The notes below the pieces were generated by a model. That model was not told where the DNA came from and made no database searches. It saw only the letters and a list, made by a program, of their open reading frames with translations. From positions 1,110,001 through 1,142,000 of the forward strand of contig NC_015913.1 in the NCBI RefSeq assembly GCF_000270205.1: a stretch of DNA of 32,000 nucleotides, given 5' to 3'. The first letter of the stretch is position 1; each line of letters begins with the position of its first letter. The position numbers were made by a program, and so were the translations under genes. Shown here one piece after another: positions 391 through 27,680 of this stretch. The stretch is from Candidatus Arthromitus sp. SFB-mouse-Japan. GTDB taxonomy: Bacteria > Bacillota > Clostridia > Clostridiales > Clostridiaceae.

Positions 391-420
391 AAGGCTACTA
401 GTTAACTAGTGGCCTTTTAT
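391..420 (+). terminator. Rho-independent terminator after glmS
   Basis: Stem aaggctactag (391-401) / ctagtggcctt (406-416), loop ttaa, one mismatch, followed by TTTT. Overlaps the 3' end of the convergent gene. Confidence 0.65.
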
Positions 421-2005: not shown

Positions 2006-2106
2006 TCAACATTGATAACCTCCTTATATATATATACTTAATTTATCGTTAATCTTCTAATACAAATTTACAAATAAATCAATACTTATTTGAAAAAAAT
2101 ACCTAA

Positions 2107-3456: not shown

Positions 3457-3513
3457 AAACTTTCTCCTTAGAGTACAATTCATTTAAATCTTTATCTTAA
3501 TAATATTTTAACA

Positions 3514-3533
3514 ATTATGTAATGAATTTGCAA
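3514..3533 (-). promoter_or_regulatory. Putative promoter element shared with the next paralogue
   Basis: Minus strand reads TTGCAA (3528-3533) - 8 nt - CATAAT (3514-3519) TGTTAA. The same arrangement occurs at 5359-5378. Confidence 0.35.
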
Positions 3534-3559
3534 CTATTTTTTTTAATAATTTTTTAAAA

Positions 3560-3592
3560 AATATAAAAAGCTTACCTATTAAAGGCAAGCTT
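3560..3592 (-). terminator. Rho-independent terminator of the 3602-5302 gene
   Basis: Minus-strand hairpin AAGCUUGCC-UUUAAUA-GGUAAGCUU followed by a U-rich run (plus-strand A-run 3565-3569). Confidence 0.7.
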
Positions 3593-3601
3593 CCGATTAA
3601 A

Positions 3602-5302: not shown

Positions 5303-5358
5303 AATTTTTCTCCTTAGAATACAATTCATTTAATGTTTGTTTTGATGAAATTCTAACA

Positions 5359-5378
5359 ATTATATAACACACTTGCAA
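5359..5378 (-). promoter_or_regulatory. Putative promoter element (paralogue of 3514-3533)
   Basis: Minus strand reads TTGCAA (5373-5378) - 8 nt - TATAAT (5359-5364) TGTTAG. Confidence 0.35.
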
Positions 5379-5404
5379 CCCTTTTTAAAATAATTTTTTC
5401 AAAT

Positions 5405-5434
5405 AATTAAAAGCCTACCATTAAAGGCAAGCTT
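5405..5434 (-). terminator. Rho-independent terminator of the 5444-7477 gene
   Basis: Minus-strand hairpin AAGCUUGCC-UUUAAU-GGUAGGCUU (two G.U pairs) followed by a U-rich tail. Homologous to the hairpin at 3568-3592. Confidence 0.6.
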
Positions 5435-5443
5435 TCAATTTAA

Positions 5444-7477
5444 TTAAAGACCTAAAGCTTTTACTCTAGCCTGAAATTCTGATTCATTAACCATTTCATT
5501 AACTATATATCCTAAAGCTGAAGAATCAGAATAACCGTTCTTCTGTAAAGCATCAAACTTGTCTGTCCAATATTTTAATCCTGTAGCATCAGATTTTCTA
5601 TTAACGATAACTTGATATAGAGCTTCAATTTTTGCAGTAGTAGTTGTATTTAAGTTTATAAACTCTTTTTCTGATAATAAGTTTCCAACGAATTTCTCAG
5701 GAGATGTAGTCTTCCTTGATAATTGAAGTTCCCAATAAGCGAATCCTCTTTCATCAGCTTGTCTATTTAAAGAGTATTTATAAACATCAACTATAAATTG
5801 TCTTAATTTAGTTTCAGAAACTTTAGTTGTAAATGTTGCAACTGTAACTTTTCTACTAGTTCCATTTTTATCAGTATAAGATATAATAAAGTTTTTGTAT
5901 TGTTTCTCAGGAACTAATCCAACTAATTCTACATTACCATTTGAATATTTTACAGTAACACCTTCAACATTAGTTGAGAAATTTTTACCATCTCTCATAC
6001 TATTAGCTAAATTAGTAGTTGAAACAGGTATAGATGCTGTAACATCTTTTATAGTTGCTTTATTTATGTCTGTTGTTTTAATTTCATAGCTAGTTGAACT
6101 TGATGAACTTGAAGTTCCTCCAGTTATTGTTGATCCTGATCCCGATACTGGTAATGTTCTAAATGTTCCAGTAAGTATAAGGGTTCTTCCATCAAATATT
6201 GAGTAAGTATATTCTGTATTCGAAGAAAGACCTGTTAATTTAAACTCACTTGAAGTTTGTGTTATAGGTTTAGGAATAGCTGCTCCAGTAGCTGTACTAC
6301 TTAATCCTAAAGTTAACCCACCAGGTGTATTTACTACATATGATCCTTTTAATGTTATAGTAGCTGAATTAGATGTTATATTTGAAATTTCTAAAGCCAA
6401 CTCACCTAATGTCTTGAAATCTGTTGTATTCGTACTAGTTATACCTTGATATGTATTACCATCCAAAGTAACTTCCGCAGTTGCAGCCACTGTATATAGT
6501 GTATTTGGATTCAACCCTGTCTCAAAAGTGTAAGTTAATTGGTTAGTACCTTCAGGTAGCGCATCATTATTAACAGTTTCTACATCTGTATTACCATTTT
6601 TAATACTCAATTTAATATCTTTGATACCCAAACCAGTTGTTAATCCAGCCTGATCAATTCCAAATACAGCATCTACATATTTAGATCCAATACTACCACT
6701 AGTTATAGTCATAGTTATAGCTACTTGATCTGCATACAACTTAGATCCAGCAGTAAATATATTTCCTTTAACATCAGTATTAGATGTAGGTTCTTTATCT
6801 ACTAAAACACCTGTTACAGTATTATTTTGTACATCAACAATCTTTCCAACTGTATTTTGTAACTTAGCAATAAAAGGATCTTTCAGTGTAGTAGCCGAAT
6901 CTACAAATGTAATACCTGATATAGTAACATTATCACCATATTGTATAACTGGTTTAGTATTGGCAGCATCTCTTGTTATTGTAAGTTTACTAGCTCCATC
7001 TAACTTAAGTCCAGCTGTTTTCATTAAGAATGAACCATTTTTAAAGTTTATAGTTAATGAGCCAGCTGCTAATCTTTTGGATAACTCAGCAATTATAGCT
7101 GCATCTAAATTTATATCCATAGTTATATCAATATTAATTGTTGTAACATTCGTATTTTGTAAAGCTGCTTTTAATTGATCAATAGGTGTTTGAGTAGTTC
7201 CTGTACCACCAGTTTGATCAGTTATATCAACTGTTGTTCTGCTTGATTTAAGTCTTTCATCTTCTACAGCTTGTCCTAATTCATCTGCAACAGTTTTTAT
7301 AGGCATCATTGCTAATTTATCTTCAACAATTTCAAATTCACCTTCCATAGTAGCAGAAACTTGAATTTCTGGAGTAACTTGACTTGCTAAAGCTTGCTGA
7401 TAACCTAACACTGATCCTGAACTAACTCCAACTATCGCTATACTTAATAAAAATTTAGCTAACTTCTTTCTTAACAT
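5444..7477 (-). CDS. Large secreted surface protein: signal peptide, T/G/N-rich beta-rich region, one FN3-like module, C-terminal module with two DUF4214-like repeats
   Basis: 677-aa ORF. AAGGAG upstream of ATG 7477. Signal peptide MLRKKLAKFLLSIAIVGVSSGSVLGYQQALA. The last ~214 aa are ~80% identical (manual alignment) to the C-terminus of the 3602-5302 product. Confidence 0.7.
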   Translation of the reverse strand: MLRKKLAKFLLSIAIVGVSSGSVLGYQQALASQVTPEIQVSATMEGEFEIVEDKLAMMPIKTVADELGQAVEDERLKSSRTTVDITDQTGGTGTTQTPIDQLKAALQNTNVTTINIDITMDINLDAAIIAELSKRLAAGSLTINFKNGSFLMKTAGLKLDGASKLTITRDAANTKPVIQYGDNVTISGITFVDSATTLKDPFIAKLQNTVGKIVDVQNNTVTGVLVDKEPTSNTDVKGNIFTAGSKLYADQVAITMTITSGSIGSKYVDAVFGIDQAGLTTGLGIKDIKLSIKNGNTDVETVNNDALPEGTNQLTYTFETGLNPNTLYTVAATAEVTLDGNTYQGITSTNTTDFKTLGELALEISNITSNSATITLKGSYVVNTPGGLTLGLSSTATGAAIPKPITQTSSEFKLTGLSSNTEYTYSIFDGRTLILTGTFRTLPVSGSGSTITGGTSSSSSSTSYEIKTTDINKATIKDVTASIPVSTTNLANSMRDGKNFSTNVEGVTVKYSNGNVELVGLVPEKQYKNFIISYTDKNGTSRKVTVATFTTKVSETKLRQFIVDVYKYSLNRQADERGFAYWELQLSRKTTSPEKFVGNLLSEKEFINLNTTTTAKIEALYQVIVNRKSDATGLKYWTDKFDALQKNGYSDSSALGYIVNEMVNESEFQARVKALGL

Positions 7478-8638: not shown

Positions 8639-9014
8639 TAGATCTATAACCCCATTCAAATTTAAATTCTTTATGATAGTAACACATAAATCAATACTGT
8701 TCAAATTTATTTATGAACTGAAGGTATAGTATCTTGGAAACTCTGTCCACAAACCTATATATCGTCCCAAATAATATAAACTTTACAAAGAAGTGGAAAA
8801 AATTTTTTAATTAATTTCCATAAAGTTAAATATTATTCCAGTGCTTACGATAATTTTAAAAAACTACAAATCAAGTGAGTAAGCCTTGATTAATATAGAA
8901 TTTTGATTTATATTAATATTAACATTAAATTAATTATGTAAACTTTATATTAAAATATTAAACACTAATTTGTTTGATTAATTAAAAATTCAATAATTAA
9001 GGAGATTGATTATT

Positions 9015-13270: not shown

Positions 13271-15865
13271 TTATTGATAGTTTCTCTGAGCTTCTTGAAA
13301 CCTTTTCTGATATCCATCAGCCAATTGCTTATTTAATTGACCAGCAAAGTTTTGATCTACTTTAAGTTTTGAAATATCCTCATCAGTTAGATTAGTTTCT
13401 ACGGTCTTAGATAAAACTTGTAATTTACCATCTTGTTTTCCAACACTATAATGTATATTCCCATTCATATTAGAAGCTTTTGGCTTTTTATCCTCTTCAG
13501 ATGCTGTTTCAAAATAAGTAGAAAGGGCTTGTACTTTACCTGCTTTTACAACTGATGTAGTATCTGATACAGTCACTGTTCTCTGCAAATGAGTCGTATC
13601 TCCTCTTTCTGGACTTTTAGTCTTAACCAAAGCACTTGAAGAAGTTCCAGTAGATGAACTATCTATATTTTTTTTTTGACCGGAACTAATAATTTGAGCA
13701 GTTCCAGTTAGTAAAATTTGATTTGATTTTTTCACGCTGTCTTTATTACTAGATCCTCCCCTTGTAGGAGCAGATGGCGTAATAGTAATCGAAGAAGTAA
13801 ATCTAGTAGGCGTAACTGTTGTTGATGATGATGTTTGTCCATCCTTACTTCCAGTACTAGTTGAAGTTGGCGTTGATGGTGTCACTTGTCCACCTTGACC
13901 CCCTGTAGATGGCGTTGTAGTTGAAGTTGATGATGTTTCAGTTTTCACGCCACTAGCAGTAGATCCCCCCCTTGTAGGAGCAGATGGCGTAATAGTAACC
14001 GAAGAAGTAAATCTAGGAGGCGTACTTGTTGTTGATGTTTGTCCAGTTTGAGTAGTTCCTGAAGTTTCATTAGAACTTGAACCCGTTTCTTTCACTTTTA
14101 ACTTGTTTGCTAAACCCTGAGCTGCACCAATTACACCTGTATTACCAAGCTTTACTACTCCACTACTAGAAGTTGTTGTATTTCCTTGATCAGTAGGTTT
14201 TGTTTCAGGACTTGTTTTAAGTCTGCTAAAAATTAATTTAGTTTGCTCTTCATAAACTGGATTTTTAAACGAAACTGTACCTGTAGGGGTTTGTTGTATA
14301 CTACCTTTATCAGTTTCAGTTACATTGGTTACATCTCCTTGTGTACCTGAAGTCTGTGGAATTTTTAAAGTAACGTTTTTCACTGATTCTGTATATACCG
14401 GCTTAGAATCTTTTCCTCCAATTTGTATCCTTAATTCAGTACGATATCTAACTCCAGAAGTTCCTTGAGTTGAATGTTGTCCATCTTCACTTCCAGAACT
14501 AGTCGGACTTGTCATTGTTGATGTTACCTGTTTGCTAGAAGAAGTTGAAGTTGATGGAGTCGTCACTTGTCCAGTTTGAGAAGTTCCTGAAGTTCCAGTA
14601 GAACTTGAACTTGTATCCTTCACTTTTAACTTGCTTGCTAAATTTCTAGCTGGATCCATAACACTTGGATTATTAACTTTAACTGTACCTACAGAAGTAC
14701 CAGATGTTACTGATTGTGAACTTTGACTATCAGTTTGTGAAGAAGTATTAGTAACTTTTACAATAGGTGTCTGAGTAGATTTATCTGGACTTCCTGTAAG
14801 TGTATCATTTGTTCCACTACTTACTTTTAATTTCGATGCAATTTGTTTTGCTACATCCATAACACTTGGATTATTAACTTTAACTGTACCTACAGAAGTA
14901 CCAGATGTTCCTGATTGTGAACTTTGACTATCAGTTTGTGAAGAAGTATTAGTAACTTGTACAACAGGTGTTTGAGTAGATTTATCTGGATTCCTTAAAA
15001 CAACATTTGTTCTTTCATTTACTTTTAATCCACCAGCTATTTTTTGAGCTGTAGCAATAAGTTCTGGATTATTAACTTTAACCGTTCCAACACTGCCTTT
15101 ATCTTCTACAAAACTTACACCACCATCAGGATTTTTAACCATATTTAAATTCAAACTAGAAGTTACCCTATTACTTGCTACATTACTTGCACTACTATTT
15201 GCACTTACACTTGATACTGAACTCACAGCAGAGTTAACACTATTAATAGATCCTGTTTCTTCAAGTTTAGCTTGTTGTGCTTGAATTATATCTGAACCAA
15301 TTATCCATTTTGGTTTAGAACGATATATGTAACTTGTCACTCTTCCAGTAGTAGGATCTACATATTTATCTCTTCCAATTTCTCCTTTTAAGAACAATTC
15401 AAATCTAGTTGCCATATTTCTCTCATATGTCCTTAATTCACCACTTGAAGTAACATATTGAACATACCTTTTATTTGGATCAATAGGTCCTACAGGTACA
15501 AATTCATCTACATTAACTCCAAACTTATGCGTAACTTTATGTGTTGGAAATTGACCTTGTCCTGACGTTGGAATATTAGTTTCTACTGTTGTCGCTAATC
15601 TCAGACCACTATCAGCTGGATTAGTCAAAGCTCTTCCACTCGAACCAGTATTAGAACCCAAACCACTTCCAGTTCTAGTTACTACACTTCCAGTTCTGCC
15701 AATCAAACTACTCGTAACTCTGCTAACTACAGAACCTACTCTACTTCCAACTGTGGCATTTGCTTTCTCAGCATCACTAAAATATAAAGACATGGTCGCA
15801 ACCACTGATAATACATAAAGACTTCCGCTATACAGTCCGATATTTTTTTTATTTTTAACAGCCAT
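13271..15865 (-). CDS. Secreted S/T-rich low-complexity surface protein, family member 1 (864 aa)
   Basis: Family-type signal peptide MAVKNKKNIGLYSGSLYVLSVVATMSLYFSDAEKANA. 67-aa tandem repeats (SVGTVKVNNP...). Duplicated RFTSS[VI]TITPSAPTRGGS. Non-repetitive C-terminal ~110 aa. GGAGGAG RBS upstream. Confidence 0.75.
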   Translation of the reverse strand: MAVKNKKNIGLYSGSLYVLSVVATMSLYFSDAEKANATVGSRVGSVVSRVTSSLIGRTGSVVTRTGSGLGSNTGSSGRALTNPADSGLRLATTVETNIPTSGQGQFPTHKVTHKFGVNVDEFVPVGPIDPNKRYVQYVTSSGELRTYERNMATRFELFLKGEIGRDKYVDPTTGRVTSYIYRSKPKWIIGSDIIQAQQAKLEETGSINSVNSAVSSVSSVSANSSASNVASNRVTSSLNLNMVKNPDGGVSFVEDKGSVGTVKVNNPELIATAQKIAGGLKVNERTNVVLRNPDKSTQTPVVQVTNTSSQTDSQSSQSGTSGTSVGTVKVNNPSVMDVAKQIASKLKVSSGTNDTLTGSPDKSTQTPIVKVTNTSSQTDSQSSQSVTSGTSVGTVKVNNPSVMDPARNLASKLKVKDTSSSSTGTSGTSQTGQVTTPSTSTSSSKQVTSTMTSPTSSGSEDGQHSTQGTSGVRYRTELRIQIGGKDSKPVYTESVKNVTLKIPQTSGTQGDVTNVTETDKGSIQQTPTGTVSFKNPVYEEQTKLIFSRLKTSPETKPTDQGNTTTSSSGVVKLGNTGVIGAAQGLANKLKVKETGSSSNETSGTTQTGQTSTTSTPPRFTSSVTITPSAPTRGGSTASGVKTETSSTSTTTPSTGGQGGQVTPSTPTSTSTGSKDGQTSSSTTVTPTRFTSSITITPSAPTRGGSSNKDSVKKSNQILLTGTAQIISSGQKKNIDSSSTGTSSSALVKTKSPERGDTTHLQRTVTVSDTTSVVKAGKVQALSTYFETASEEDKKPKASNMNGNIHYSVGKQDGKLQVLSKTVETNLTDEDISKLKVDQNFAGQLNKQLADGYQKRFQEAQRNYQ
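13751..14037 (-). repeat. Two ~75-bp direct coding repeats 210 bp apart
   Basis: 13751-13825 and 13961-14037 are near-identical (agatcc[t/c]cccc ttgtaggagcagatggcgtaatagtaa...) and encode P[PT]RFTSS[VI]TITPSAPTRGGS. Confidence 0.8.
14615..15094 (-). repeat. 201-bp (67-aa) tandem coding repeats, two full copies plus a partial third
   Basis: The anchor ccataacacttggattattaac recurs at 14656 and 14857 (period 201). About 130 nt following each anchor differ by only a handful of bases. Confidence 0.85.
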
Positions 15866-15935
15866 GTATTCTCCTCCATCTTTAATAATTAAAATTAAAA
15901 AACAACTTAATCCTTCTTGCTTAATTCATTTTTTT

Positions 15936-15978
15936 GTAATAATTATAACATTATTTTTGACAAAATTCATTATTTTTT
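15936..15978 (-). promoter_or_regulatory. Family-conserved promoter-like block (extended -10)
   Basis: Minus strand reads ...ATGAATTTTGTCAAAAATAATGTTATAATTATTAC, with TATAAT at 15942-15947, 77 nt from the ATG. Homologous blocks lie upstream of all five family members. Confidence 0.45.
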
Positions 15979-16017
15979 AATTTTTTATATAAATTTAATT
16001 CATATTTGCTAAAAAAC

Positions 16018-16043
16018 TTAAAAAAAGAGATCATATGATCTCT
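16018..16043 (-). terminator. Rho-independent terminator (AGAGATC-N4-GATCTCT type)
   Basis: Stem agagatc/gatctct (16026-16043), with the plus-strand A-run giving a U-run on the minus strand. Confidence 0.7.
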
Positions 16044-16070
16044 TTCAAATTTTTATAAATTTACTTTCTC

Positions 16071-16093
16071 AAAGAGAGATCCTAAGATCTCTC
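16071..16093 (-). terminator. Second, weaker hairpin of the same type
   Basis: gagagatc-ctaa-gatctctc (16074-16093). Only a short U-run follows on the minus strand. Confidence 0.45.
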
Positions 16094-16119
16094 AATAAAT
16101 TCAATTTATTATGACGTTA

Positions 16120-16321
16120 TTACAATTGTCCTGAACCAGTTGAAGTTGTTGAACTACTAGTTGTTCCAGTCGATTTGTAGTTCTACTAACAGATTCTAAA
16201 AATTGCTAAGTAAATAGATTCTTAAGACCTCTATATGAACCTTTCAAATCCTCCGTCAGAAGAAGTAGTAGTTACTTTTGTCTCTGAACTAGTAGCTGGT
16301 AATGAAATCGTACTTGTGCCA
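16120..16321 (-). pseudogene. Decayed 3' continuation of the 16322-17842 S/T-rich gene
   Basis: A frame shifted by one nucleotide relative to the 16322-17842 ORF reads NGTSTISLPATSSETKVTTTSSDGGFERFI*RS*ESIYLAIFRIC**NYKSTGTTSSSTTSTGSGQL**. Family-like S/T-rich coding is interrupted by a frameshift and several stops. Confidence 0.55.
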
Positions 16322-17842
16322 TTAAGTTGACGTTTCTTTTAATTTAATCACACTCCTACTATTTGGAGTTGGTTGTGGTGATGACAATTTAAGCCCATTT
16401 AATGTACTTGTGCTTGGTGTTGCTGTATTCGTGCTTGAAGCACTACTACTAGTTGTAGTAGTGGTTACTGAGGTAGTACTTGTACCTGTGCTACCAGTTG
16501 TTCCAGTTAATGAAGAAGGACTAACAGTTGGAGTTGGAATAGTTCCAGTGCTAGTTACTACTGTTGTTTGTGCTCCTGAAGCAGATGTTTGAATATTACT
16601 TGTACTGCTACTAGAAACAGGCATCACAGTTGTAGTTGTGCTTGCACCTACACCAGTACTTGATGTCTTCGTACTTGAACTGCTACTAGTTGCAGTAGTA
16701 GTTACTGGAGTAGTGTTTGTACTTGTGCTACTAGTTGAAGATCCTTTTAATTTAATCACATTCCTACCAGTTATAGATGGTTGTGGTGATGACAATCTAA
16801 TCCCACTTAATGTACTTTTAGTAGTAGGTGCTGGAGTCGTACTTGTACTTGATGTTGGTGTCTTCGTACTTGAACCGCTACTAGTTGCAGTAGTAGTGCC
16901 TATACTTATACTACTAGTTGTCCCAGTTGATAAAGAAGGACTGACAGTCGAAGTCGGAGTAGTTCCAGTGCTAGTTACTACTATTGTTTGTGCTCTTGAA
17001 CTAGGTGTTTGTACAGGAGCTGTACCTATCCCAGTAGTTTGCGTAGAAGTTGTAACTGTAGTTGTCATAGGAGTCTGTGTTGAAGTTGATACACTTGTAC
17101 CACCACTGGAAACAGGCGTTGTACTTGTACCTGTGTTACCATCTCTAAACCTATTATAAATATTTAGAGATTGTTCTAAAAAGCTAGGATTCCTAACCGT
17201 AACTTTATCTTTCTCTACAAACTTAACCTTATCTCCTTCTTTAATCACATATAAATTTAACCTAGATGTAAATTTCCCACTTCCTGTTCCAGTACCTCCT
17301 GAAGATGTAGATTGTCCTCCACTTTGAGTTGAAGAACCTGTAGATTGTCCCGCACCAGAAACAGATGAAGAAGAGCCGCTACTTGTTGAAGCTACAGGCA
17401 TAGTTGAAGAAGATACAGTACTAGTTGGAGCTGTAGACGTAGTTGAAGAACTAGTTTTATACATAAATCTACGCTGTCGCCCATCACTCCCCGTATATTT
17501 CTGTACACCGTATGTACCTTCTTTCCACAACAATTTTTCTTTAGGTGCTGGACCCTGTCCAGGATATAACTTTGTTTTATTATTTTCAGAGTCAAAAAGT
17601 GCAACAAGTTTCTTTACTGGTGATGTAGGATCATCGGAAACTCTAAGACCAGTTATTTTACCTGAAGTAGAAAGAATATTCCTAGTTAAACCTGATGCTG
17701 AAGAAGTAAGCTTAGCCATCATGTTTCTGACCATAGCACTAGCATCTTCACCTTTAGATAAATATACAGAAACAGCGCTAATCACTGATAATGCACAAAG
17801 ACTTCCACCATAAACTCTAATTTTCTTTTTGTTGACATCCAT
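16322..17842 (-). CDS. Secreted S/T-rich low-complexity surface protein, family member 2 (506 aa, probably 3'-truncated)
   Basis: Signal peptide MDVNKKKIRVYGGSLCALSVISAVSVYLSKGEDASA. Conserved module KLYPGQGPAPKEKLLWKEGTYGVQKYTGSDG. Two ~90-aa internal repeats ending L[SN]G[IL][RK]LSSPQP...VIKLK. Confidence 0.75.
   Translation of the reverse strand: MDVNKKKIRVYGGSLCALSVISAVSVYLSKGEDASAMVRNMMAKLTSSASGLTRNILSTSGKITGLRVSDDPTSPVKKLVALFDSENNKTKLYPGQGPAPKEKLLWKEGTYGVQKYTGSDGRQRRFMYKTSSSTTSTAPTSTVSSSTMPVASTSSGSSSSVSGAGQSTGSSTQSGGQSTSSGGTGTGSGKFTSRLNLYVIKEGDKVKFVEKDKVTVRNPSFLEQSLNIYNRFRDGNTGTSTTPVSSGGTSVSTSTQTPMTTTVTTSTQTTGIGTAPVQTPSSRAQTIVVTSTGTTPTSTVSPSLSTGTTSSISIGTTTATSSGSSTKTPTSSTSTTPAPTTKSTLSGIRLSSPQPSITGRNVIKLKGSSTSSTSTNTTPVTTTATSSSSSTKTSSTGVGASTTTTVMPVSSSSTSNIQTSASGAQTTVVTSTGTIPTPTVSPSSLTGTTGSTGTSTTSVTTTTTSSSASSTNTATPSTSTLNGLKLSSPQPTPNSRSVIKLKETST
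16337..17017 (-). repeat. Two ~270-bp direct coding repeats (period ~420 bp)
   Basis: Residues ~276-366 and ~416-502 align: ...[RG]AQT.VVTSTGT.PT.TVSPS..TGTT...TL.G..LSSPQP....R.VIKLK. Confidence 0.7.
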
Positions 17843-17905
17843 GTATTATTCTCCTTTATCAATCAAATTTTAAATAATGATTAATTTTTATTTAATTTAT
17901 TGTTT

Positions 17906-17947
17906 CGAAATAATTATACCACTTTTCTCATAAAATTTAATTTTTTT
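17906..17947 (-). promoter_or_regulatory. Family-conserved promoter-like block
   Basis: Minus strand reads ...AAAAGTGGTATAATTATTTCG, with TATAAT at 17913-17918 and a TGn extended -10, 71 nt from the ATG. Confidence 0.4.
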
Positions 17948-17987
17948 AAATTTTATTTTAATTTGATTCACACTTATAAAATTTTAT

Positions 17988-18013
17988 TTAAAAAAGAGAT
18001 CCGAAGATCTCTT
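17988..18013 (-). terminator. Rho-independent terminator (AGAGATC type)
   Basis: aagagatc-cgaa-gatctctt (17994-18013), preceded by a plus-strand A-run (U-run on the minus strand). Confidence 0.75.
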
Positions 18014-18034
18014 AAAATTCTACTTAACTACTTC

Positions 18035-18889
18035 CTATTCTAAACTTGATTCCTCTATTGTAGGAAAATTTGGAATATAACCTCCTAAACCAGGTCTATG
18101 TTTTCTACCTCCACCAGGTCTTGAATATCCATCTGTCTTATCACCTGATAGAGAAAGTAAACTTTGATCTACACTAGAAGTAAGGCCTCTAGAAGAACTT
18201 GTACTACTAGATGTTGTAGAAGTAACTGAGCTAGATGACATAGAAGAAGAACTTGATGTAACACTGGATCTACTACTTGTACCAGATGTACCAGTCGTAG
18301 TACTGCTAGTGCTTGTAGAAGCACCTGAACTAGAACTCTTAGTAGAAGGACTACCAGTACTAGTCAACTTAATTTTAGTTACAGTTCTAGTTGTTGGTGT
18401 AGGAGTTTGTGGCGTTGACAATTTAAGACCAGATAATTTTCCTGATTCACTTTGTGGGTTAGATCTGTAAATAAATCCATGCTCACTTCCATCGCTTCCC
18501 ACATATTTTTGTATACCAAATCCTTGAGTTCCTAACCATAACAATTTCTCTTTAGGATTCGAAGGCTGATTAGGATATACCTTTCTTGTACCATCTGGGC
18601 TAACTAGTGAAACAATCTTATATCCTGAACCAAAAGCAGATGGTCTAACAGAAAGACCCCTATTTTTTAAACCACTACTTGTTTTACTACTAATAATTTT
18701 CTTTACACCAACAACTCCTGAATTAAGACTATCACCAATGCCTCTAAACATTTTTGTCAATGAAAAAAGAGCACCACCACCAACTGTAGCATTGGCATCT
18801 TTAGATCCAACTACACATAAAGAAACAGCAGTAGCCATTGACAATATACAAAGACACCCACTATATTTCACAACTTTTCTTTTATTCAT
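18035..18889 (-). CDS. Secreted S/T-rich low-complexity surface protein, family member 3 (284 aa)
   Basis: Signal peptide MNKRKVVKYSGCLCILSMATAVSLCVVGSKDANA. Module KVYPNQPSNPKEKLLWLGTQGFGIQKYVGSDGSEHGFIYRS. LSGLKLSTPQ...VTKIKL motif. AAGGAG RBS. Confidence 0.75.
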   Translation of the reverse strand: MNKRKVVKYSGCLCILSMATAVSLCVVGSKDANATVGGGALFSLTKMFRGIGDSLNSGVVGVKKIISSKTSSGLKNRGLSVRPSAFGSGYKIVSLVSPDGTRKVYPNQPSNPKEKLLWLGTQGFGIQKYVGSDGSEHGFIYRSNPQSESGKLSGLKLSTPQTPTPTTRTVTKIKLTSTGSPSTKSSSSGASTSTSSTTTGTSGTSSRSSVTSSSSSMSSSSVTSTTSSSTSSSRGLTSSVDQSLLSLSGDKTDGYSRPGGGRKHRPGLGGYIPNFPTIEESSLE

Positions 18890-18960
18890 TCATCAATTCT
18901 CCTTTCCAAATAACTTAAAATTAATCAATATCATAAACCATAACATATAAGTTCATTTTT

Positions 18961-19013
18961 CTGTAACAATTATAATATTTTTTTTACAAAATTGCACTAT
19001 TTTTTCAATTTTT
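18961..19013 (-). promoter_or_regulatory. Family-conserved promoter-like block
   Basis: Minus strand reads ...GTGCAATTTTGTAAAAAAAATATTATAATTGTTACAG, with TATAAT at 18969-18974, 80 nt from the ATG. Confidence 0.4.
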
Positions 19014-19026
19014 ATCTAAAATTTTT

Positions 19027-19049
19027 AAAAAAGAGACCTTACGGCCTCT
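19027..19049 (-). terminator. Rho-independent terminator
   Basis: Minus-strand hairpin AGAGGCC-GUAA-GGUCUCU (one G.U pair) followed by U6. Confidence 0.7.
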
Positions 19050-19066
19050 AAATAAAATACAAGAGA

Positions 19067-19413
19067 TTAGTTATTCCTTGTAGTTGAGTTCTTAGGTCTT
19101 GCACCTAGCCTAGTAGAATCAATACCATTGCCACCATTAATTCCAGATACTACAGTAGGAAACATACCTTGTGGTCCCGATTCTACATTATTTGTTGGAG
19201 CACTCAAAGATCCAGCTCCACTGCTACCACTAAACCCACTATCAGCTAAAGGCCTTGGGCTATCAGTACCCGAATCATACAAATTAGGATAAGTTACTTT
19301 ACTACCATAGTTTCTTTAATTCCAGCTGAACACAAGGAAGCAACAGTAACCATTGACAACATACAAAGACGTCCACCATACTTTATAGCTCTTTTCTTAT
19401 TTTTTACATTCAT
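19067..19413 (-). pseudogene. Frameshifted small member of the S/T-rich family
   Basis: ATG 19413 with AAAGGAG RBS gives MNVKNKKRAIKYGGRLCMLSMVTVASLCSAGIKETMVVK* (stop 19294-19296). Coding continues in another frame as VTYPNLYDSGTDSPRPLADSG...ARPKNSTTRNN* (to 19067). This is consistent with a 1-nt deletion near 19297-19300. Confidence 0.6.
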
Positions 19414-19482
19414 TTACATATTTCTCCTTTTTTATACTTTAAAGTTAATCGGACTCCTAATCTCAATTGTCTAATTTATTCT

Positions 19483-19536
19483 CACTAACAATTATATCAT
19501 CTTCTTTAATAAAATTCATCATTTTTTAACTTTTTT
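19483..19536 (-). promoter_or_regulatory. Family-conserved promoter-like block
   Basis: Minus strand reads ...GATGAATTTTATTAAAGAAGATGATATAATTGTTAGTG, with TATAAT at 19491-19496, 78 nt from the ATG. Confidence 0.4.
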
Positions 19537-19583
19537 GTTAAATTTAGTTCATATTTTGATAAATATTCTAAGATTCAAATAAT

Positions 19584-19614
19584 AAAAAAGGGAAATATCA
19601 ACTTAATATTTCCC
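19584..19614 (-). terminator. Rho-independent terminator
   Basis: gggaaatat (19590-19598) / atatttccc (19606-19614), with plus-strand A-run 19584-19589. Confidence 0.7.
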
Positions 19615-19641
19615 AATAAATTCAAATTCTAAATACATATT

Positions 19642-20118
19642 TTAATTTTGTCCCCCACTAGATGTAGACACTAATGATTTGGTAGAAGTTGAAGTCCCTA
19701 ATCCACTACTACTGGTTCTAAATGGTAAACCATCAGTTGTTTGTAAAATAATTTTTTTAGTTGAACCATCCCTACCTACATAATCCTGTGTCTTAACTTC
19801 AGAATTCCCCAATAACAATACTTTTGTCTTAGGTGTATTTTGTCCTAAATATATGTGTAAATTACCTGCTGGATCCTTTAAACCAAGTATATGTTTTGAT
19901 GGATTTTCAGGATCAGGCTAAACTTTAAGACCACCTACTCCACTAGTAAGTGAGATCGCAACTTTTTGAATAGTGGCACTAGTTTTTGGTTCGATGCCAG
20001 GCAAAATTGCATTAGCTTGCTTACTCCCATTTGCATATAAAGAAACAGCAGTGATCATTGATAACATGCAAAGACTACCACTATAAATTCCAATACTTCT
20101 CTTGCGTTTAAAATTCAT
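19642..20118 (-). pseudogene. S/T-rich family member interrupted by an in-frame TAG
   Basis: MNFKRKRSIGIYSGSLCMLSMITAVSLYANGSKQANA...GGLKV, then TAG (19918-19920). The same frame continues PDPENPSKHILGLKDPAGNLHIYLGQNTPKTKVLLLGNSEVKTQDYVGRDGSTKKIILQT...SSGGQN* (stop 19642-19644). The downstream part aligns to the conserved module of members 2 and 3. Confidence 0.7.
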
Positions 20119-20176
20119 TTTATTAATTCTCCCTTTAAAATAAATATGTAAATAATTAGTTAATTTATTAAAGTTT

Positions 20177-20220
20177 CTGTGATAATTATATCATTATTTT
20201 TTACAACATTTAGCTTTTTT
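20177..20220 (-). promoter_or_regulatory. Family-conserved promoter-like block
   Basis: Minus strand reads ...TGTTGTAAAAAATAATGATATAATTATCACAG, with TATAAT at 20185-20190, 67 nt from the ATG. Confidence 0.4.
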
Positions 20221-20298
20221 TATAATTTTTTTCGCAATATTTTCGATAATTATAAAATTGTTTGCCTTTAAATCTTCTTAGAAATAAATTGATATCAA

Positions 20299-20332: not shown

Positions 20333-21472
20333 TTATCTATTTATATAATTTTCAATTCTAACTAGTCCTCTTTCAAGTTCATCAATAGAATTACAATAAC
20401 TAAGTCGCATATATCCCTCACCCATTTCACCAAAAGCACTACCAGGAACACAAGCAACTCCCGCATTCTTTAACAAATCAACACAAAAATCATAACTTTT
20501 CTCATTAGTTATACCATCAAGAGATGGAAAAATATAAAACGCTCCCATCGGCTTTTCAACTCTAAATCCCATTTTAATTAATCTATCATATATAAAATCT
20601 CTTCTCACCCTAAACTCTTCTCTCATTATTTCAACATCTCTAAGAGCCTCATCAAAACCATACAAAGTACCATATTGAACAATAGATACAGCAGAAGATG
20701 TCGCATATAAATGAACTTTATTAAGCTCCTCTATATACGGACTCTTTGCACAAATAAATCCAAGCCTTAATCCTGTCATAGAAAACATCTTGGAAAATCC
20801 AGAAACCAAAATTATTCTATCCAATAAATCCTCATATTCACAAATAGTTTCAAATTTATCATAAATGATAGTACTATACATTTCATCACTTATTATTTTA
20901 CAATATGGATACTTAGATAAAATACTATAAAACTTCTTCTTATCGTCTTCAGTCAGAGCAATTCCCGTTGGATTGTTCGGAAAACACATTACGATTCCTT
21001 TAATATCTTTACTCTTAAACTCGCTTTCTATCCTATCAAAATCAATTTTACCATCCTTATTCACACTATAAAAAACAGGATTAGCTCCTACAAATTTAAG
21101 AGTATTTTCATACGCAGGATAACCTGGACTCGGAGTTAAAACGTTATCTCCTTCATTAAAAATTGTATTGAAAGTTACAAAAAGTGCCTCACTTCCACCA
21201 ACGGTTAAAATCATTTCATCTTTAGAAAACTTTATAGAATACTCATCATCCAAATATTTAGATATCCTCTCTCTAAGCTCAGGTATTCCTTGATTCATAG
21301 TATAATAAGTTTTTCCCTCATCTAAAGCTCTCAAAATTCCTTTCTTAAGAGACTTTGGAAGTTTAAAATCAGGTTGTCCTACTGTTAAAGAAACGGCATC
21401 TGGGTAATTCCTAACCTCATTAAAAAATTTTCTTATACCAGAATACTGAACATTTTTCATATGTCTATTCAT
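20333..21472 (-). CDS. Class I/II pyridoxal-phosphate aminotransferase (possibly the DAP-pathway N-acetyl-LL-diaminopimelate aminotransferase, given nearby dapH)
   Basis: FPNNPTG motif. PLP-lysine motif SGFSKMFSMTGLRLGF. AGGAGG lies 10 nt upstream of ATG 21472. The substrate assignment is inferred from gene context only. Confidence 0.8.
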   Translation of the reverse strand: MNRHMKNVQYSGIRKFFNEVRNYPDAVSLTVGQPDFKLPKSLKKGILRALDEGKTYYTMNQGIPELRERISKYLDDEYSIKFSKDEMILTVGGSEALFVTFNTIFNEGDNVLTPSPGYPAYENTLKFVGANPVFYSVNKDGKIDFDRIESEFKSKDIKGIVMCFPNNPTGIALTEDDKKKFYSILSKYPYCKIISDEMYSTIIYDKFETICEYEDLLDRIILVSGFSKMFSMTGLRLGFICAKSPYIEELNKVHLYATSSAVSIVQYGTLYGFDEALRDVEIMREEFRVRRDFIYDRLIKMGFRVEKPMGAFYIFPSLDGITNEKSYDFCVDLLKNAGVACVPGSAFGEMGEGYMRLSYCNSIDELERGLVRIENYINR

Positions 21473-21496: not shown

Positions 21497-22030
21497 TTAA
21501 TATTCTATGCCGACTCTAGCTAAAATGCCATCATCATAATAATGTTTAACTTTATCAATCTTACTAACCAAATCAGCATTGTCTATTAAAGTTTGAGATG
21601 CATTTCTACCTGTCAAAACTAATTCAAGACTCTTCGGCTTATTCCTCATAACTTCAATTATCTCGGCTTCATCTATAAATCCTCCTTGAATTGCACCAAG
21701 AACCTCATCTAAAATTATCAAATCGTATTTTCCTGAATTTATAAATTCCTTAGCTTTATTCAATTCAACTTTAATTTCTTCTCTAAGCAAATTAAGCTGT
21801 TCTTCGTTGAGATTGTAAGTAAAACTCTTTTTGCTCTCAATCCTATAAATTTCAAATCTATCACCCAAAAGTTTAATGCTATCCAATTCAGACGTGTGCC
21901 AATTCTTAAGAAATTGAACCATCATAACTCTAAACCCCGCTCCAATACTCCTAAATGCAAGTCCTAAAGCACATGTAGTTTTCCCCTTACCGTCTCCCAT
22001 ATAAATATGTATATATCCATTCTTTTCCAA
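21497..22030 (-). CDS. cobO: Cob(I)yrinic acid a,c-diamide / corrinoid adenosyltransferase (CobA/CobO/BtuR family)
   Basis: GDGKGKTTCALGLAFRSIGAGFRVMMVQFLK P-loop region typical of the family. TTG start 22030 with GGAGGG 6 nt upstream. Confidence 0.8.
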   Translation of the reverse strand: MEKNGYIHIYMGDGKGKTTCALGLAFRSIGAGFRVMMVQFLKNWHTSELDSIKLLGDRFEIYRIESKKSFTYNLNEEQLNLLREEIKVELNKAKEFINSGKYDLIILDEVLGAIQGGFIDEAEIIEVMRNKPKSLELVLTGRNASQTLIDNADLVSKIDKVKHYYDDGILARVGIEY

Positions 22031-22895: not shown

Positions 22896-22925
22896 GAAGA
22901 AGACCATCATAAGATGGCCTTCTTC
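22896..22925. terminator. Terminator hairpin between convergent dapH and the SSB-like gene
   Basis: 13-bp stem gaagaagaccatc / gatggccttcttc with one mismatch, loop ataa. A clear U-run follows on the minus strand; the plus-strand run is weaker. Confidence 0.65.
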
Positions 22926-23581
22926 TATCCAACATCCTCAGACGAATCAACAACTCTATTATCTTTATCTACTTTTTCCATTTTAGAGACTGACACCTCA
23001 TATGCTACCTTTGTTACTTTCTCAGTTTCAGAAATCTTCTTTTGATATTCTCGACTTTGCAGTCGTCCCCAAACTCTTATATTATCTCCAACTTGTAAAT
23101 TCTTACAAAATCTAGAATTCCTTCCCCATGCTATAGTAGGTATGTAATCAGATTTATTGTAAGCTCTATTAACCGCTAAAAGTACATCAGCAATTTCTCT
23201 ACCAAAAGGAGTTGTCCTATAGAGTGGTTGTTTGCAAATATAACCGTCTAAATAAATTTCATTTGGATTCTTACTTCTTTCTGTACAAGGAGTAACATTA
23301 CGAGCAAAAACAGTTAATATTAATTTATTTTTCCCATCCACAATTTTATTATAAGATCTCAATTGACCTTCCAACATTATCTCTGTTCCAATGGAAAAAT
23401 CTATTCCAACCATTATTCTTTCTGATATAGTTACACTCAAAACATCTTTCGAATCACTTAAACGCATAACCTCTATGTCAAAATTATAAAATCCTTCTCC
23501 AAACATTTCGTGACTAAATTTAGGTTCATCTACTACCTTTCCTTCGAGCCATATCCTATTATTAACTAGGTTTATATCCAT
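22925..23581 (-). CDS. Single-stranded-DNA-binding-like protein with two OB folds in one chain
   Basis: Two halves each resemble an SSB OB fold (N..WLEGKVV..P......G...Y.F.I and IYLDGYICK.P..R.TP.GREIAD.LLAVNR...SDYIP.IAWGR.......L.VGD.I...GRLQSREY). Start placed at ATG 23581 with GGAGAGG upstream; the ORF track uses GTG 23596. Confidence 0.6.
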   Translation of the reverse strand: MDINLVNNRIWLEGKVVDEPKFSHEMFGEGFYNFDIEVMRLSDSKDVLSVTISERIMVGIDFSIGTEIMLEGQLRSYNKIVDGKNKLILTVFARNVTPCTERSKNPNEIYLDGYICKQPLYRTTPFGREIADVLLAVNRAYNKSDYIPTIAWGRNSRFCKNLQVGDNIRVWGRLQSREYQKKISETEKVTKVAYEVSVSKMEKVDKDNRVVDSSEDVG

Positions 23582-23713
23582 AATACACCTCTCCACATTA
23601 GTTTTTGTTCTCTAATATGTATATTAGATAGGATTTTTTTTATTACCTTGATTGTATACAATACATTATAAAATTCATTAACATATCTTTCAATATTTTA
23701 ATTTTATTAACAT

Positions 23714-26204: not shown

Positions 26205-27650
26205 TTACCTTTCATATACAATCTTTGAAATATCCGCTATTACTTTTTCTGCATTACTTAAATCCTTAGTATAAATTACCAAAATAAATGGTCTATCTCC
26301 AAAAACAATTCCTATATCATGATAATTCCCTTGAAATGATCCATACTTATTTGCAACAATCCCCTCAGGTATATATCTTCCCATTCTAACACCTGTTGAA
26401 CTATCTTTTAAATATTGAATAATATTTTTATAATAAGGATTATTATCCTTGTTTTCGTATAACTTAAGTAAAAATTTTCTCATCTCATTTGTTGAAAAAA
26501 GATTGCCTGTCCTATTTAATGGTTCTTCCAAAATTTTTCCATATTCTCTATAAAGACTTGTAACCTGATTAATTCCAGTTATTAACATATTAGCTGCAAT
26601 ATTATCTGAATTTAGGAGAGATCTTTTAGATAATTCAGCAAAAGTCTGTGGAGGTAAATATTCTCCCACTAGATAACCTTGTAAAACTCCTGAACCACCT
26701 TCATAATGTTGTGAATGAACATATTCAACTTTGCTATTTAAATTTATTTTACCAGATTGTACAAGATCATATAAAACAATATTAAGTGGTACTTTGTGAG
26801 TACTTCCCGCCTTAAATAATACGTCCCCATTTATATCAAATGATTCTTTTGTTGTAACGTCATAAAACGAAACAGCAACATTATTAACCATATCTCCTAA
26901 ATAAGTCAAAATTTTATTTTTCAACCTAGATGAACCTACTCTATTGATTAAATCTTGCTCAAGTCTTAGTGCCTCTTGTTTTCTCTTTTCAATCTCATCA
27001 GTATAATCCACAAGTTTTATATCATTCTCTAATAAATTATATATACTTAAAGCATCAGTCCTATTTACCGGTATATTAACATTATTCTTGTCCAACTTTA
27101 TGTTCATAAGAGATATCCTTACAGCAAATTCATCACTAAAGATTAATTTGTTCATAACATCACTAATCACTTTAGGTGAATCATTTATATTCCACCTTAA
27201 AATAAGAATCTCACTATTTTTATATGTTGAAGGGTACTCACTTCTATAGTAATATAAAATCCTTCCATCTATATAATCTAACCAATATTGTTTACCCTGC
27301 TTGTCCGTATCTCTTCCAAATATAAATCTATAAATCTTACTTATAAATTCTTCCTTAAGTTTAACTGAATCTAAAAATTCCTTAGACTCCAATACAAACT
27401 TCTCTATAAATGTTCTCGCAGATACTTTACCAGTACTAAGCATATTGTACCAATATCTAAATCCATCTGAATCAGCCTCACGTCCATAAAAAATATTGTA
27501 AGCTGACCCAATAAAATTTCCTAATAGCTTGTCTGAGGTTTGAGTTATAATCATATTTGCCTTAGAAGATACTTCCACAGTTTTATACGTAGATAAACAC
27601 ATACTTAAAATTAGAAACAAAGCTAAAAAACATTTGGAAATTCTTTTCAT
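26205..27650 (-). CDS. Secreted fusion protein: two DUF4214-like repeats plus a class-A beta-lactamase-like serine hydrolase domain
   Basis: Signal peptide MKRISKCFLALFLILSMCLS. DUF4214 signatures: FIGSAYNIFYGREADSDGFRYW and FISKIYRFIFGRDTDKQGKQYW. Hydrolase motifs: STHK (SxxK), SDN, KYG (KTG-like). ATG 27650 preferred to GTG 27653. Confidence 0.7.
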   Translation of the reverse strand: MKRISKCFLALFLILSMCLSTYKTVEVSSKANMIITQTSDKLLGNFIGSAYNIFYGREADSDGFRYWYNMLSTGKVSARTFIEKFVLESKEFLDSVKLKEEFISKIYRFIFGRDTDKQGKQYWLDYIDGRILYYYRSEYPSTYKNSEILILRWNINDSPKVISDVMNKLIFSDEFAVRISLMNIKLDKNNVNIPVNRTDALSIYNLLENDIKLVDYTDEIEKRKQEALRLEQDLINRVGSSRLKNKILTYLGDMVNNVAVSFYDVTTKESFDINGDVLFKAGSTHKVPLNIVLYDLVQSGKINLNSKVEYVHSQHYEGGSGVLQGYLVGEYLPPQTFAELSKRSLLNSDNIAANMLITGINQVTSLYREYGKILEEPLNRTGNLFSTNEMRKFLLKLYENKDNNPYYKNIIQYLKDSSTGVRMGRYIPEGIVANKYGSFQGNYHDIGIVFGDRPFILVIYTKDLSNAEKVIADISKIVYER

Positions 27651-27680
27651 CACTCTCTCCTTATTTTATAAAATTATTAA

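Follow-up and report, generated by a model that had tools for sequence, protein, structure and literature searches.

What drives the diversity of a tandem array of Ser/Thr-rich, apparently exported proteins in a gut commensal, and what might such proteins do for it? [quoted passage not shown] On the minus strand of this stretch (hereafter the window), five genes or gene remnants, which we call A to E, run head to tail between an aminotransferase gene and a small conserved open reading frame (ORF; Table 1). An earlier note, made from the letters of the sequence, had described them as a lineage-specific, rapidly evolving repertoire of surface or secreted proteins. In SFB, hypothetical proteins with signal peptides are known to outpace the proteome in divergence, and attachment factors are unidentified (PMC7474095); all SFB antigens known to be recognised by T cells are either secreted or located on the surface (PMC7027583; bioRxiv 10.64898/2026.04.29.720676). 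We find that the five genes make up an SFB-restricted family coinciding with an island of raised, mostly nonsynonymous diversity. We lean, with slightly better than even confidence, towards regarding its products as an exposed coat or secreted layer at the SFB-host interface, with host adaptive immunity as the most likely selecting agent and phage as the main alternative.

The ORFs of A, B and C are intact and D and E are decayed, at the positions that the earlier note had given. All five members begin with the consensus K(K/R)x(I/V)xxY(S/G)GSLCxLSxxTAxSL...(D/K/Q)A(N/S)A, in N-termini of 34-37 amino acids (aa). When members were compared by blastp, these N-termini matched at E = 1e-4 to 1e-8, and B matched C with 37% identity over 151 aa (E = 4e-17), a similarity far above the background expected of signal peptides. 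A basic n-region, a hydrophobic h-region and an AXA motif (ANA or ASA) at -3/-1 can be read by eye in A, B, C and E, and the c-region of A reads as an AXA-type signal peptidase I site. From these features we infer export through the Sec pathway, with cleavage after AXA or possibly with retention by the hydrophobic N-terminus. The signal peptide is the best-conserved segment among the paralogues, and the h-region of A is specific to the family. We could not read, by eye, a lipobox of the form L-[AS]-[GA]-C in any member: the Cys of B-E lies in G-S-L-C in the middle of the h-region, where A has Tyr. A prepilin-type N-terminus was also considered and rejected on reading the sequences. Pfam and NCBIfam searches detected no SLH, CWB2, choline-binding, LysM or SH3b domain in the family, and LP.TG is absent from all six reading frames of the window, as the earlier note had it for LPxTG and the first three of these anchors. 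SFB genomes are without sortase (PMC7474095).

Beyond the N-terminus, the A-type proteins of mouse, rat, turkey and a distant SFB lineage align over two conserved regions of ~95 residues each. The first has many invariant positions (PT.K..HK.G...F...P..Y.Q...G.L.TY...G.D.Y...G...Y.YRSKP.W..G.DI..AQ), and B, C and E keep its second half as a core of ~60 aa (KLLW...G..KY.G.DG....Y.Y), so all member types align over this module; in E it is still recognisable 3' of an interrupting TAG codon. The C-terminal region of A recurs in the orthologue from rat SFB and in the A-type protein of the distant lineage, and AlphaFold2 gave it beta-hairpins and a helix at low confidence (predicted local distance difference test (pLDDT) score 36-46). 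Full-length A was modelled with a mean pLDDT of 31.6, 799 of its 864 residues falling below 50, and is predicted to be mostly disordered. This model being too poor for a structure search, we used a model of the module alone (pLDDT 64.6, predicted template modelling score 0.51), in which hairpins and helices alternate. Foldseek comparison of the module model with PDB gave no match (best E = 0.2, TM 0.19), and the hairpin pattern Y.G.DG....Y.Y likewise has no match in sequence or structure. Sequence searches of Pfam, NCBIfam and PDB returned nothing for any of the five members or for three secreted proteins encoded nearby on the plus strand (the trio, see below). In particular, no member matched a Pfam family at E <= 1, DUF4214 (PF13946) included; the same scan found DUF4214 in a neighbouring protein of the window.

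The bodies that follow the module contain 31-44% Ser+Thr and are as variable as the earlier note had claimed, with internal repeats of 201, 210 and ~410 nt. The sole array reported by TRF lies inside B (39 nt, 2.2 copies), the other repeats being 201-420 nt long. Several motifs recur in the bodies across species: Y(T/I)S.LNL..K.GD...FVE followed by V.V.NP.....A..IA.KLKV; LSG(V/L/I)(K/R)LS.PQ...R.V.K(L/I); GARPK; and, in C-type proteins, Y.P..ETIPEE. A consensus scan for terminator-like hairpins found 14 sites in the region as against 4.2 in shuffles, and the hairpins after E, D, C and B suggest that every member is transcribed separately. B and A are set apart by an unusually long spacer (15866-16321) of 457 nt, and the B hairpin lies ~280 nt 3' of the B stop codon. 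One genome annotation puts the start of A further upstream (876 aa).

We characterized the distribution of the family with a profile of the N-terminal ~150 aa, run against 1.84 billion representative proteins with no word index at E <= 0.001. All 16 matches come from SFB except a spurious Weissella repeat protein (E = 4e-4). They include the window and mouse proteins, rat-SFB BAK81457.1 and SFB-turkey WP_156507955.1 (a partial N-terminal record), the rest being metagenome proteins; all named matches are labelled hypothetical in their source records. A word-indexed protein search with C returned orthologues of C only, and the remaining members were reached by the exhaustive profile search. A public genome collection, searched with the B+C alignment and then with the flanking aminotransferase, yielded no SFB genome, the nearest match being 36% identical; other SFB loci were reached by exact-protein look-ups. 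Thus, the family is lineage-specific, as proposed: it is restricted to SFB and multi-copy in rodent SFB, and does not consist of conserved single-copy genes of Clostridia.

Gene order at the locus is kept between SFB lineages. Two metagenome contigs, L042 and L043, show the SFB order, and one metagenome protein (P0016) resembles the SFB-turkey protein. Orthologues of A occur in rat SFB (BAK81457.1), in SFB-turkey and, in syntenic position, in a metagenome-assembled genome (MAG) of a distant SFB lineage. The contig of that lineage, L043, carries the aminotransferase gene, a single A-type gene, the same small ORF, a DUF218 gene, a DsbA-like gene and three opposite-strand genes. Rat SFB (AP012210, L054) has three members, namely a D-type ORF without signal peptide, a B/C-type gene of 632 aa and an A-type gene. 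Its D-type ORF lies at L054:7123-7701 (192 aa), and D-type genes may be decaying in rat SFB too. The rodent-type contig L042 has at least five members, one of them an intact D/E-type gene of 249 aa (P0013, the D orthologue); L042 keeps two intact D-type copies (249 and 176/188 aa). Since L043 has one A-type gene and rodent SFB have more members, the A type is ancestral, and types B-E are duplications in rodent SFB. The family evolves rapidly between these lineages: flanking proteins of mouse SFB and L042 share 89-97% aa identity, as against 48% for C and 42% for B over their alignable parts.

Rapid change is also apparent within mouse SFB, whose genomes diverge by <=0.4% overall (PMC4102870). 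The aminotransferase and the CobO-like protein next to it have identical products in CP008713 (SFB-mouse-NL), AP012209 (SFB-mouse-Yit) and many mouse-gut metagenome contigs. We compared the window with 14 further mouse-SFB sequences (L001-L006, L044-L048, L050, L052 and L053; n = 15 in all, some of them MAGs), leaving out L049, which is the same contig as L003, and L051, which is riddled with frameshifts. Nucleotide diversity (pi), computed on the window and L001-L006, delimited a diversity island at 13339-20280, with sharp edges exactly where the family begins and ends. Inside it pi was 0.005-0.038, with the peak of 0.038 at 18292-18691, in the N-terminal half of C. Across most of the upstream flank pi was 0.000-0.003, rising to 0.007 within the valyl-tRNA synthetase (ValRS) gene; on the other side it was 0.001 directly past the family and then 0.004-0.006 over DUF218, DsbA and the trio. 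In pairwise comparisons, synonymous divergence (pS) of the family was ~0.01, near background, and nonsynonymous divergence (pN) was 10-30 times higher, giving a pN/pS of ~1-5 in the family versus ~0.1 in the flanking housekeeping genes. The 1495 codons of A, B and C together have 224 nonsynonymous and 48 synonymous segregating sites (53 and 8 in C), compared with 37 and 36 in the 3444 codons of 13 flanking genes (Fisher P = 1.5e-7).

Despite this variation the genes stay open. The frame is intact in 15 of 15 sequences for C and in 14 of 15 for A and for B, the exceptions being one metagenome bin each, in repeat regions, and the length variants of A, B and C are all multiples of three. Alleles of 790, 796, 797, 798, 863, 864 and 865 aa occur for A, of 473, 502, 506, 537 and 550 aa for B, and of 282-284 aa for C; the A alleles of 797 and 798 aa are about one 67-aa repeat unit shorter than those of 864-865 aa. 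Variation through repeat number, anticipated in the earlier note, is thus borne out by the strain comparison, as is variation through gene decay (below). Nonsynonymous excess, frames kept open and in-frame lengths argue against simple decay and for selection favouring change while the proteins are retained. We consider an omega (nonsynonymous-to-synonymous rate ratio) above 1 in the family likely but not proven, given that it comes from a simple count on related, recombining sequences, some of them MAGs.

Exchange between copies contributes as well. The C genes of L001 and L005 contain ~50 nt, with a 3-nt gap among them, that match the corresponding part of B without a difference and depart from the window C at about a dozen positions; this is a short gene-conversion tract with B as donor. 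The alleles of C combine a small number of variable blocks in mosaic fashion, a pattern suggestive of recombination between strains. The locus has no convincing inverted repeats around promoters and no long homopolymer tract, and hence no sign of programmed switching.

The decayed members have different histories. The lesion of D is identical in 15 of 15 mouse-SFB sequences, making it a fixed pseudogene. E, by contrast with such fixation, is intact only in L003 and carries nine independent inactivating alleles and one secondary lesion among the 15 sequences: four nonsense mutations, five indels and one loss of the start codon. The nonsense codons are TAG at codon 67 (window), TGA at codon 92 (L001), TAA at codon 56 (L002, L004, L045 and L047) and TAA at codon 93 (L005). 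Single-nucleotide deletions occur at codons 141 (L006), 44 (L044) and 48 (L050) and a 1-nt insertion at codon 44 (L048); ATG is changed to ATA at the start in L046, L052 and L053, and the secondary lesion is a deletion affecting codon 32 in L045 and L047. Sequencing error is an unlikely source of the indels, because the other genes of the same assemblies are intact. Since no lesion is common to all sequences, the ancestor probably had a working E that was lost repeatedly and independently. Phase variation of E is not supported, as only two of the five indels share an A5 tract.

Table 1 Coordinates of the five-gene family, the plus-strand trio and their neighbours in the window
Feature	Position	Strand	Description
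Member A	13271-15865	-	864 aa, intact ORF; signal peptide, G/S/R/T/V-rich segment, beta-module, long S/T-rich body (predicted disordered) with repeats, conserved C-terminal region
Signal peptide of A (aa 1-37)	15755-15865	-	Lys-rich n-region, h-region LYSGSLYVLSVVATMSLYF, c-region SDAEKANA, then TVG
N-terminal folded module of A (aa ~105-200)	15266-15553	-	Predicted beta-hairpin, helix, beta-hairpin, helix
201-nt (67-aa) repeat in A, three copies	14605-15092	-	Repeat families D2, D3; unit motif VGTVKVNNPxxxxxAxxIAxKLKV
210-nt repeat in A, two copies	13750-14037	-	RFTSS(V/I)TITPSAPTRGGS; copies 94% identical; repeat family D7
Conserved C-terminal region of A-type proteins (aa ~770-864)	13274-13558	-	VQALSTYFE through KLKVD.NFA..LN..LADGYQ
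Member B	16322-17842	-	506 aa, intact ORF; signal peptide; one YTSRLNL..K.GD..FVE unit; duplicated S/T-rich block of ~140 aa ending LSG(I/L)(R/K)LSSPQP...VIKLK
Short beta-module of B	17447-17620	-	
Repeats of ~410 nt in B, two copies	16325-17064	-	Repeat families D1, D4, D6
Member C	18035-18889	-	284 aa, intact ORF; S/T-rich body; conserved C-terminal motif Y.P..(E/P)TI(P)EE
Signal peptide of C	18788-18889	-	
Short beta-module of C	18455-18628	-	
Member D, pseudogene	19067-19413	-	39-aa signal-peptide ORF, frameshift, 71-aa ORF ending ...SGPQGMFPTVVSGINGG...LGARPK (three-frame translation)
Member E, pseudogene in the window strain	19642-20118	-	158 codons, 477 nt; one in-frame TAG (nt 19918-19920)
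Terminator-like hairpin after E	19590-19614	-	Consensus scan
Terminator-like hairpin after D	19032-19049	-	Consensus scan
Terminator-like hairpin after C	17994-18013	-	Consensus scan
Terminator-like hairpin after B	16023-16046	-	Consensus scan
Trio protein 1	9006-9812	+	Likely ATG at 9015
Trio protein 2	9939-10517	+	
Trio protein 3	10536-11339	+	
Four tandem secreted paralogues	398-7477	-	535, 458, 575 and 677 aa; repeated beta-rich units; the 677-aa protein at 5444-7477
Small conserved ORF	12767-13177	+	136 aa, Lys/Asn-rich; convergent with A
Aminotransferase	20333-21472		
CobO-like protein	21497-22030		
Single-stranded DNA-binding (SSB) protein	22925-23596	-	223 aa; SSB domain at residues 112-200
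Beta-lactamase-like protein	26205-27653	-	Precomputed Pfam beta-lactamase-like domain, faint DUF4214
ValRS	27795-30452	-	

The earlier note had further, as a possibility, joined the family to the trio in an eight-gene superfamily and had seen in trio protein 1 a G/R/S-rich post-signal segment like that of the family. Neither link was supported: blastp between trio and family gave E >= 0.7, hhalign probabilities were 0.1%, 0.4% and 3.1% with the alignment over the xANA cleavage region alone, and the post-signal resemblance received no score. Among themselves, the trio proteins show no detectable relationship outside the signal peptide. On these comparisons we regard them as three separate SFB-specific secreted disordered proteins, neighbours and not members of the five-gene family. 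Each has its own orthologues, in the same position, in rat SFB and in the distant SFB lineage; these are 24-40% identical overall, yet a few motif islands are fixed. Protein 1 (orthologues P0038, P0039 (rat SFB) and L043:16964-18400) has the family motifs (V/T)VY(A/S)(S/T)(L/I/V), (V/T)IYT(S/T)VK, Y(Q/E)N and KPTPPPR, and PAPRT.L.TK is conserved at its C-terminus; the motifs (V/T)xY(A/S)(S/T)(L/I/V) and (V/T)IYTxVK fit the immunoreceptor tyrosine-based inhibitory or switch motif pattern. Protein 3 (orthologues L054:14154-14972 and L043:14623-16071) is free of tyrosine; PDAPPLPP is invariant in it, VGKLDL and LSGLLG are repeated, and (L/M).ELK.KL is conserved at the C-terminus. LKKTET, a string identical to that of thymosin beta-4, occurs in the mouse-SFB form only, rat SFB having LNKTNT. 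A WH2/thymosin reading of protein 3 was rejected: in local alignments to thymosin beta-4 and the WASP WH2 domain, 28-143 of 500 shuffles reached the observed score, and the string is not kept in rat SFB.

Protein 2 (orthologues P0025, P0027, P0028, P0030, P0031 and L043:16088-16837) combines the motifs KAPxxPPR (PxxPxR), P(I/V)YENVLTL, an invariant KRPAYNPNKG.AP.PP and a C-terminal (E/D)(H/P)IYEEI(D/P), so that nearly every tyrosine lies in a conserved SH2-ligand-like motif (PIYENV, C-terminal EHIYEEI). Distant members of its family carry arrays of DPIYDEVAGDPIYQ, TIYDKVADDPIYQ and DPIYDPVADDEPIYETI, and also TIYDKVADDPIY; the arrays in distant SFB include DPIYDEVAG and TIYDKVADD. Among the tyrosines of seven orthologues, a loose SH2-ligand-like pattern accounts for 56% and [IV]Y[DE]x[IV] for 38%, compared with 4% and 1% in 18 other window proteins (P = 4e-14 for [IV]Y[DE]x[IV]); the orthologues are not independent samples, and the P values overstate the case. 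The sequence pYEEI is the optimum for the Src SH2 domain, and pYxN is preferred by that of Grb2. The Nck-binding site around Y112 of vaccinia A36 reads APSTEHIpYDSVAGST (PMC9333988) and has been called nearly identical to the Nck-binding site of enteropathogenic Escherichia coli (EPEC) Tir (PMC2172230). Protein 2 thus resembles EPEC Tir (Y474), vaccinia A36 (Y112) and CagA (EPIYA) in having tyrosine motifs in a disordered protein, a likeness at the level of motifs only; unlike these effectors, the trio proteins have Sec signal peptides, with no secretion-system genes nearby and no type III context. We know of no route by which the trio proteins would enter the host cytosol. Where SFB attach, actin accumulates and bacterial protein is endocytosed in a Cdc42-dependent manner (PMC7027583), and protein 2 could represent host-signalling mimicry linked to this actin rearrangement. 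Our literature search found no paper linking SFB to such tyrosine motifs.

How might the five-gene family have arisen, and to what end? We propose that an A-type gene was duplicated in rodent SFB to give a tandem family of Sec-exported proteins, each comprising the family-specific signal peptide, a short Gly/Ser/Arg-rich segment, a small beta-rich module and a long disordered Ser/Thr-rich body. The proteins would be exposed at the SFB-host interface, where an outside agent would select for change; diversity arises, as described above, by substitution, in-frame gain or loss of 200-420-nt repeats, conversion between paralogues, mosaic recombination between strains and outright loss. Both the exposure and the outside selection are suggested by the variation pattern together with known SFB biology. 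Several points weigh against this proposal. Export is read from sequence rules, whereas expression, surface location, antigenicity and the mucin-like O-glycosylation raised in the earlier note are hypothetical; no glycosyltransferase gene was identified in the window. The signal peptide was judged by eye, and its h-region of 21 residues, unusually well conserved, might just as well serve as a membrane anchor that is not cleaved. The excess over omega = 1 is modest (224:48 against a neutral ~3.1:1; approximate binomial P ~ 0.006), and variable sites can be overcounted where S/T-rich repeats are aligned. The family further shows ~3 times higher synonymous diversity, which indicates that recombination or conversion contributes besides selection. 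The lesions of E could reflect neutral decay that followed an unseen loss of regulation common to all strains. The known epitopes LVFDVQFSGAVPNKT/QFSGAVPNKTD (SFBNYU_003340) and SGLIYVTL (SFBNYU_003240), and IRWFGSSVQKV, which we take to be another SFB epitope, do not occur in the window, even with a tolerance of 2-4 mismatches. Finally, the variation pattern would fit host immunity and phage alike.

If phage or competing bacteria drove the diversity of exposed envelope proteins, with variation and loss serving receptor escape, the same signatures would be expected: a bounded island, nonsynonymous excess, repeat-length change and recurrent loss of E. Four partial prophages in the SFB-mouse-NL genome (PMC4102870) add to this possibility. 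However, no phage or defence gene adjoins the locus, and SFB are best known for strong immunoglobulin A (IgA) and T-cell responses to secreted or surface proteins, so that we think this explanation unlikely, while keeping it in view. To about the same degree we doubt that the five proteins are host-directed cargo, released at the holdfast, endocytosed by enterocytes and acting through short motifs alongside the trio. SFB are reported to transfer wall-associated protein into enterocytes (PMC7027583), the family adjoins a trio with SH2- and SH3-ligand-like motifs, no anchor motif is recognisable, and the disordered bodies have cross-species motifs (LSGxKLSxPQ...RxVxKL, GARPK and Y.P..ETIPEE). 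But those motifs match no host-binding motif that we could name, none of the 25 tyrosines counted past residue 35 in A, B and C matches the SH2-ligand-like pattern enriched in the trio, and uptake is reported for the DUF4214-type antigen P3340 only. A still somewhat less probable arrangement would unite the two groups: the 12-kb stretch 9006-20118 as an SFB host-interface cassette, with the trio as host-signalling mimics and the five-gene family as coat. The trio, with its Tir/A36/EPIYA-like tyrosine, PxxPxR and PPLPP motifs, may then enter enterocytes at the holdfast through adhesion-triggered endocytosis and recruit SH2/SH3 adaptors, leading to actin accumulation and Cdc42-dependent uptake at attachment sites, and the family may be an immunodominant, host-specific coat whose loss of E represents escape from IgA or T cells.

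Relaxed constraint on decaying, functionless lineage-specific ORFs would also raise the nonsynonymous rate, and would suit a pN/pS near 1 for A, two pseudogenes among five members and low-complexity, disordered sequence. We nevertheless consider it very improbable: the ~272 point polymorphisms in A, B and C include no stop codon in good assemblies, with E heavily lesioned in the same sequences; every length change is in frame; module, motifs and gene order are kept across mouse, rat, turkey and distant SFB; and each gene keeps its own terminator. The alpha C/Rib proteins of group B Streptococcus and the Vlp/Vsa proteins of Mycoplasma achieve antigenic and size variation under host pressure by in-frame repeat change and recombination, with conserved 5' ends. 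Like these, the SFB family is multigene and repeat-bearing, with in-frame repeat change, conserved 5' ends and recombination between copies; unlike these, it shows no high-frequency switch, with no invertible promoters, long homopolymers or lipoprotein signal, and its variation is seen between strains. The serine-rich repeat glycoprotein adhesins (SRRPs) are marked by a ~90-aa KxYKxGKxW signal, accessory SecA2/Y2 and glycosyltransferase genes, LPxTG and an SAS(T/E) dipeptide periodicity. With Fap1, GspB, SraP and PsrP the SFB family shares a Ser/Thr-rich, size-variable make-up in which a compact folded part is joined to a long stalk of low complexity, and like them it is apparently exported in a host-attached Gram-positive. 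That it is an SRRP system of the Fap1/GspB/PsrP type is, however, the least probable of these explanations, and strongly disfavoured: it has no SRRP hallmark, be it the KxYKxGKxW signal, LPxTG or the dipeptide periodicity; its folded module adjoins the signal peptide; no accessory Sec (SecA2/SecY2) or glycosyltransferase (Gtf) gene was identified in the window, where ORFs 398-5329 and 31030-31956 were read and not Pfam-scanned; and SFB are without sortase (PMC7474095). Judged by their sequences, then, the five proteins resemble size-variable, repeat-bearing antigen families in behaviour and SRRPs in composition, with a module that has no known relatives.

Among the neighbours, the four tandem paralogues at the start of the window and the beta-lactamase-like protein seem to belong to the Cluster.1/3 family that Pamp et al. 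2012 (PMC3371716) described in SFB. A similar C-terminal region is common to at least three of the four paralogues; Pfam confirms DUF4214 in the 677-aa protein only. The Cluster.1/3 group includes the antigens P3340 and SFBNYU_003240 (PMC7474095; 2026 bioRxiv preprint), and DUF4214 proteins of SFB are polymorphic (PMC3371716). The five-gene family is like the Cluster.1 and Cluster.3 DUF4214 proteins in being SFB-specific, having signal peptides and being polymorphic between mouse lineages, and unlike them in having no DUF4214 (a proposed wall-anchoring motif), another N-terminal module and a much higher S/T content. Our Pfam scan of ten neighbours covered a DsbA-like protein, DUF218, the aminotransferase, CobO, DapH, SSB, a deacetylase, a 2-hydroxyacid dehydrogenase, the DUF4214 protein and one protein with no match; for ValRS and the remaining upstream genes we used precomputed Pfam labels. 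The small ORF convergent with A, which has no Pfam match, is kept in mouse, rat and distant SFB. The SSB protein has an N-terminal extension of ~110 aa that matches no family, and its start is called 5 aa later in other strains. ValRS has 16 nonsynonymous and 12 synonymous segregating sites (n = 15), with pi up to 0.0067 at 28681-29480, a diversity bump unusual for an aminoacyl-tRNA synthetase.

To the extent of the limited literature collection that we searched, no prior description of the five-gene family, the diversity island or the recurrent loss of E was found. SFB are the reference commensal for the induction of T helper 17 cells and IgA and for intimate, host-specific attachment, and their adhesins and the surface retention of their proteins are still unknown (PMC7474095). 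The locus narrows the choice to a few candidates for exposed proteins, whose population genetics gives a clear signal of outside selection. With no fewer than nine independent knock-outs among mouse SFB, E provides a natural experiment, and the trio offers a testable idea for how SFB trigger actin rearrangement. In vivo editing of SFB has recently been reported (PMC12969935), so that knock-out and restoration experiments should be possible. Even if the family were merely a fast-drifting coat protein, its members would still serve as markers for strain typing and host specificity.

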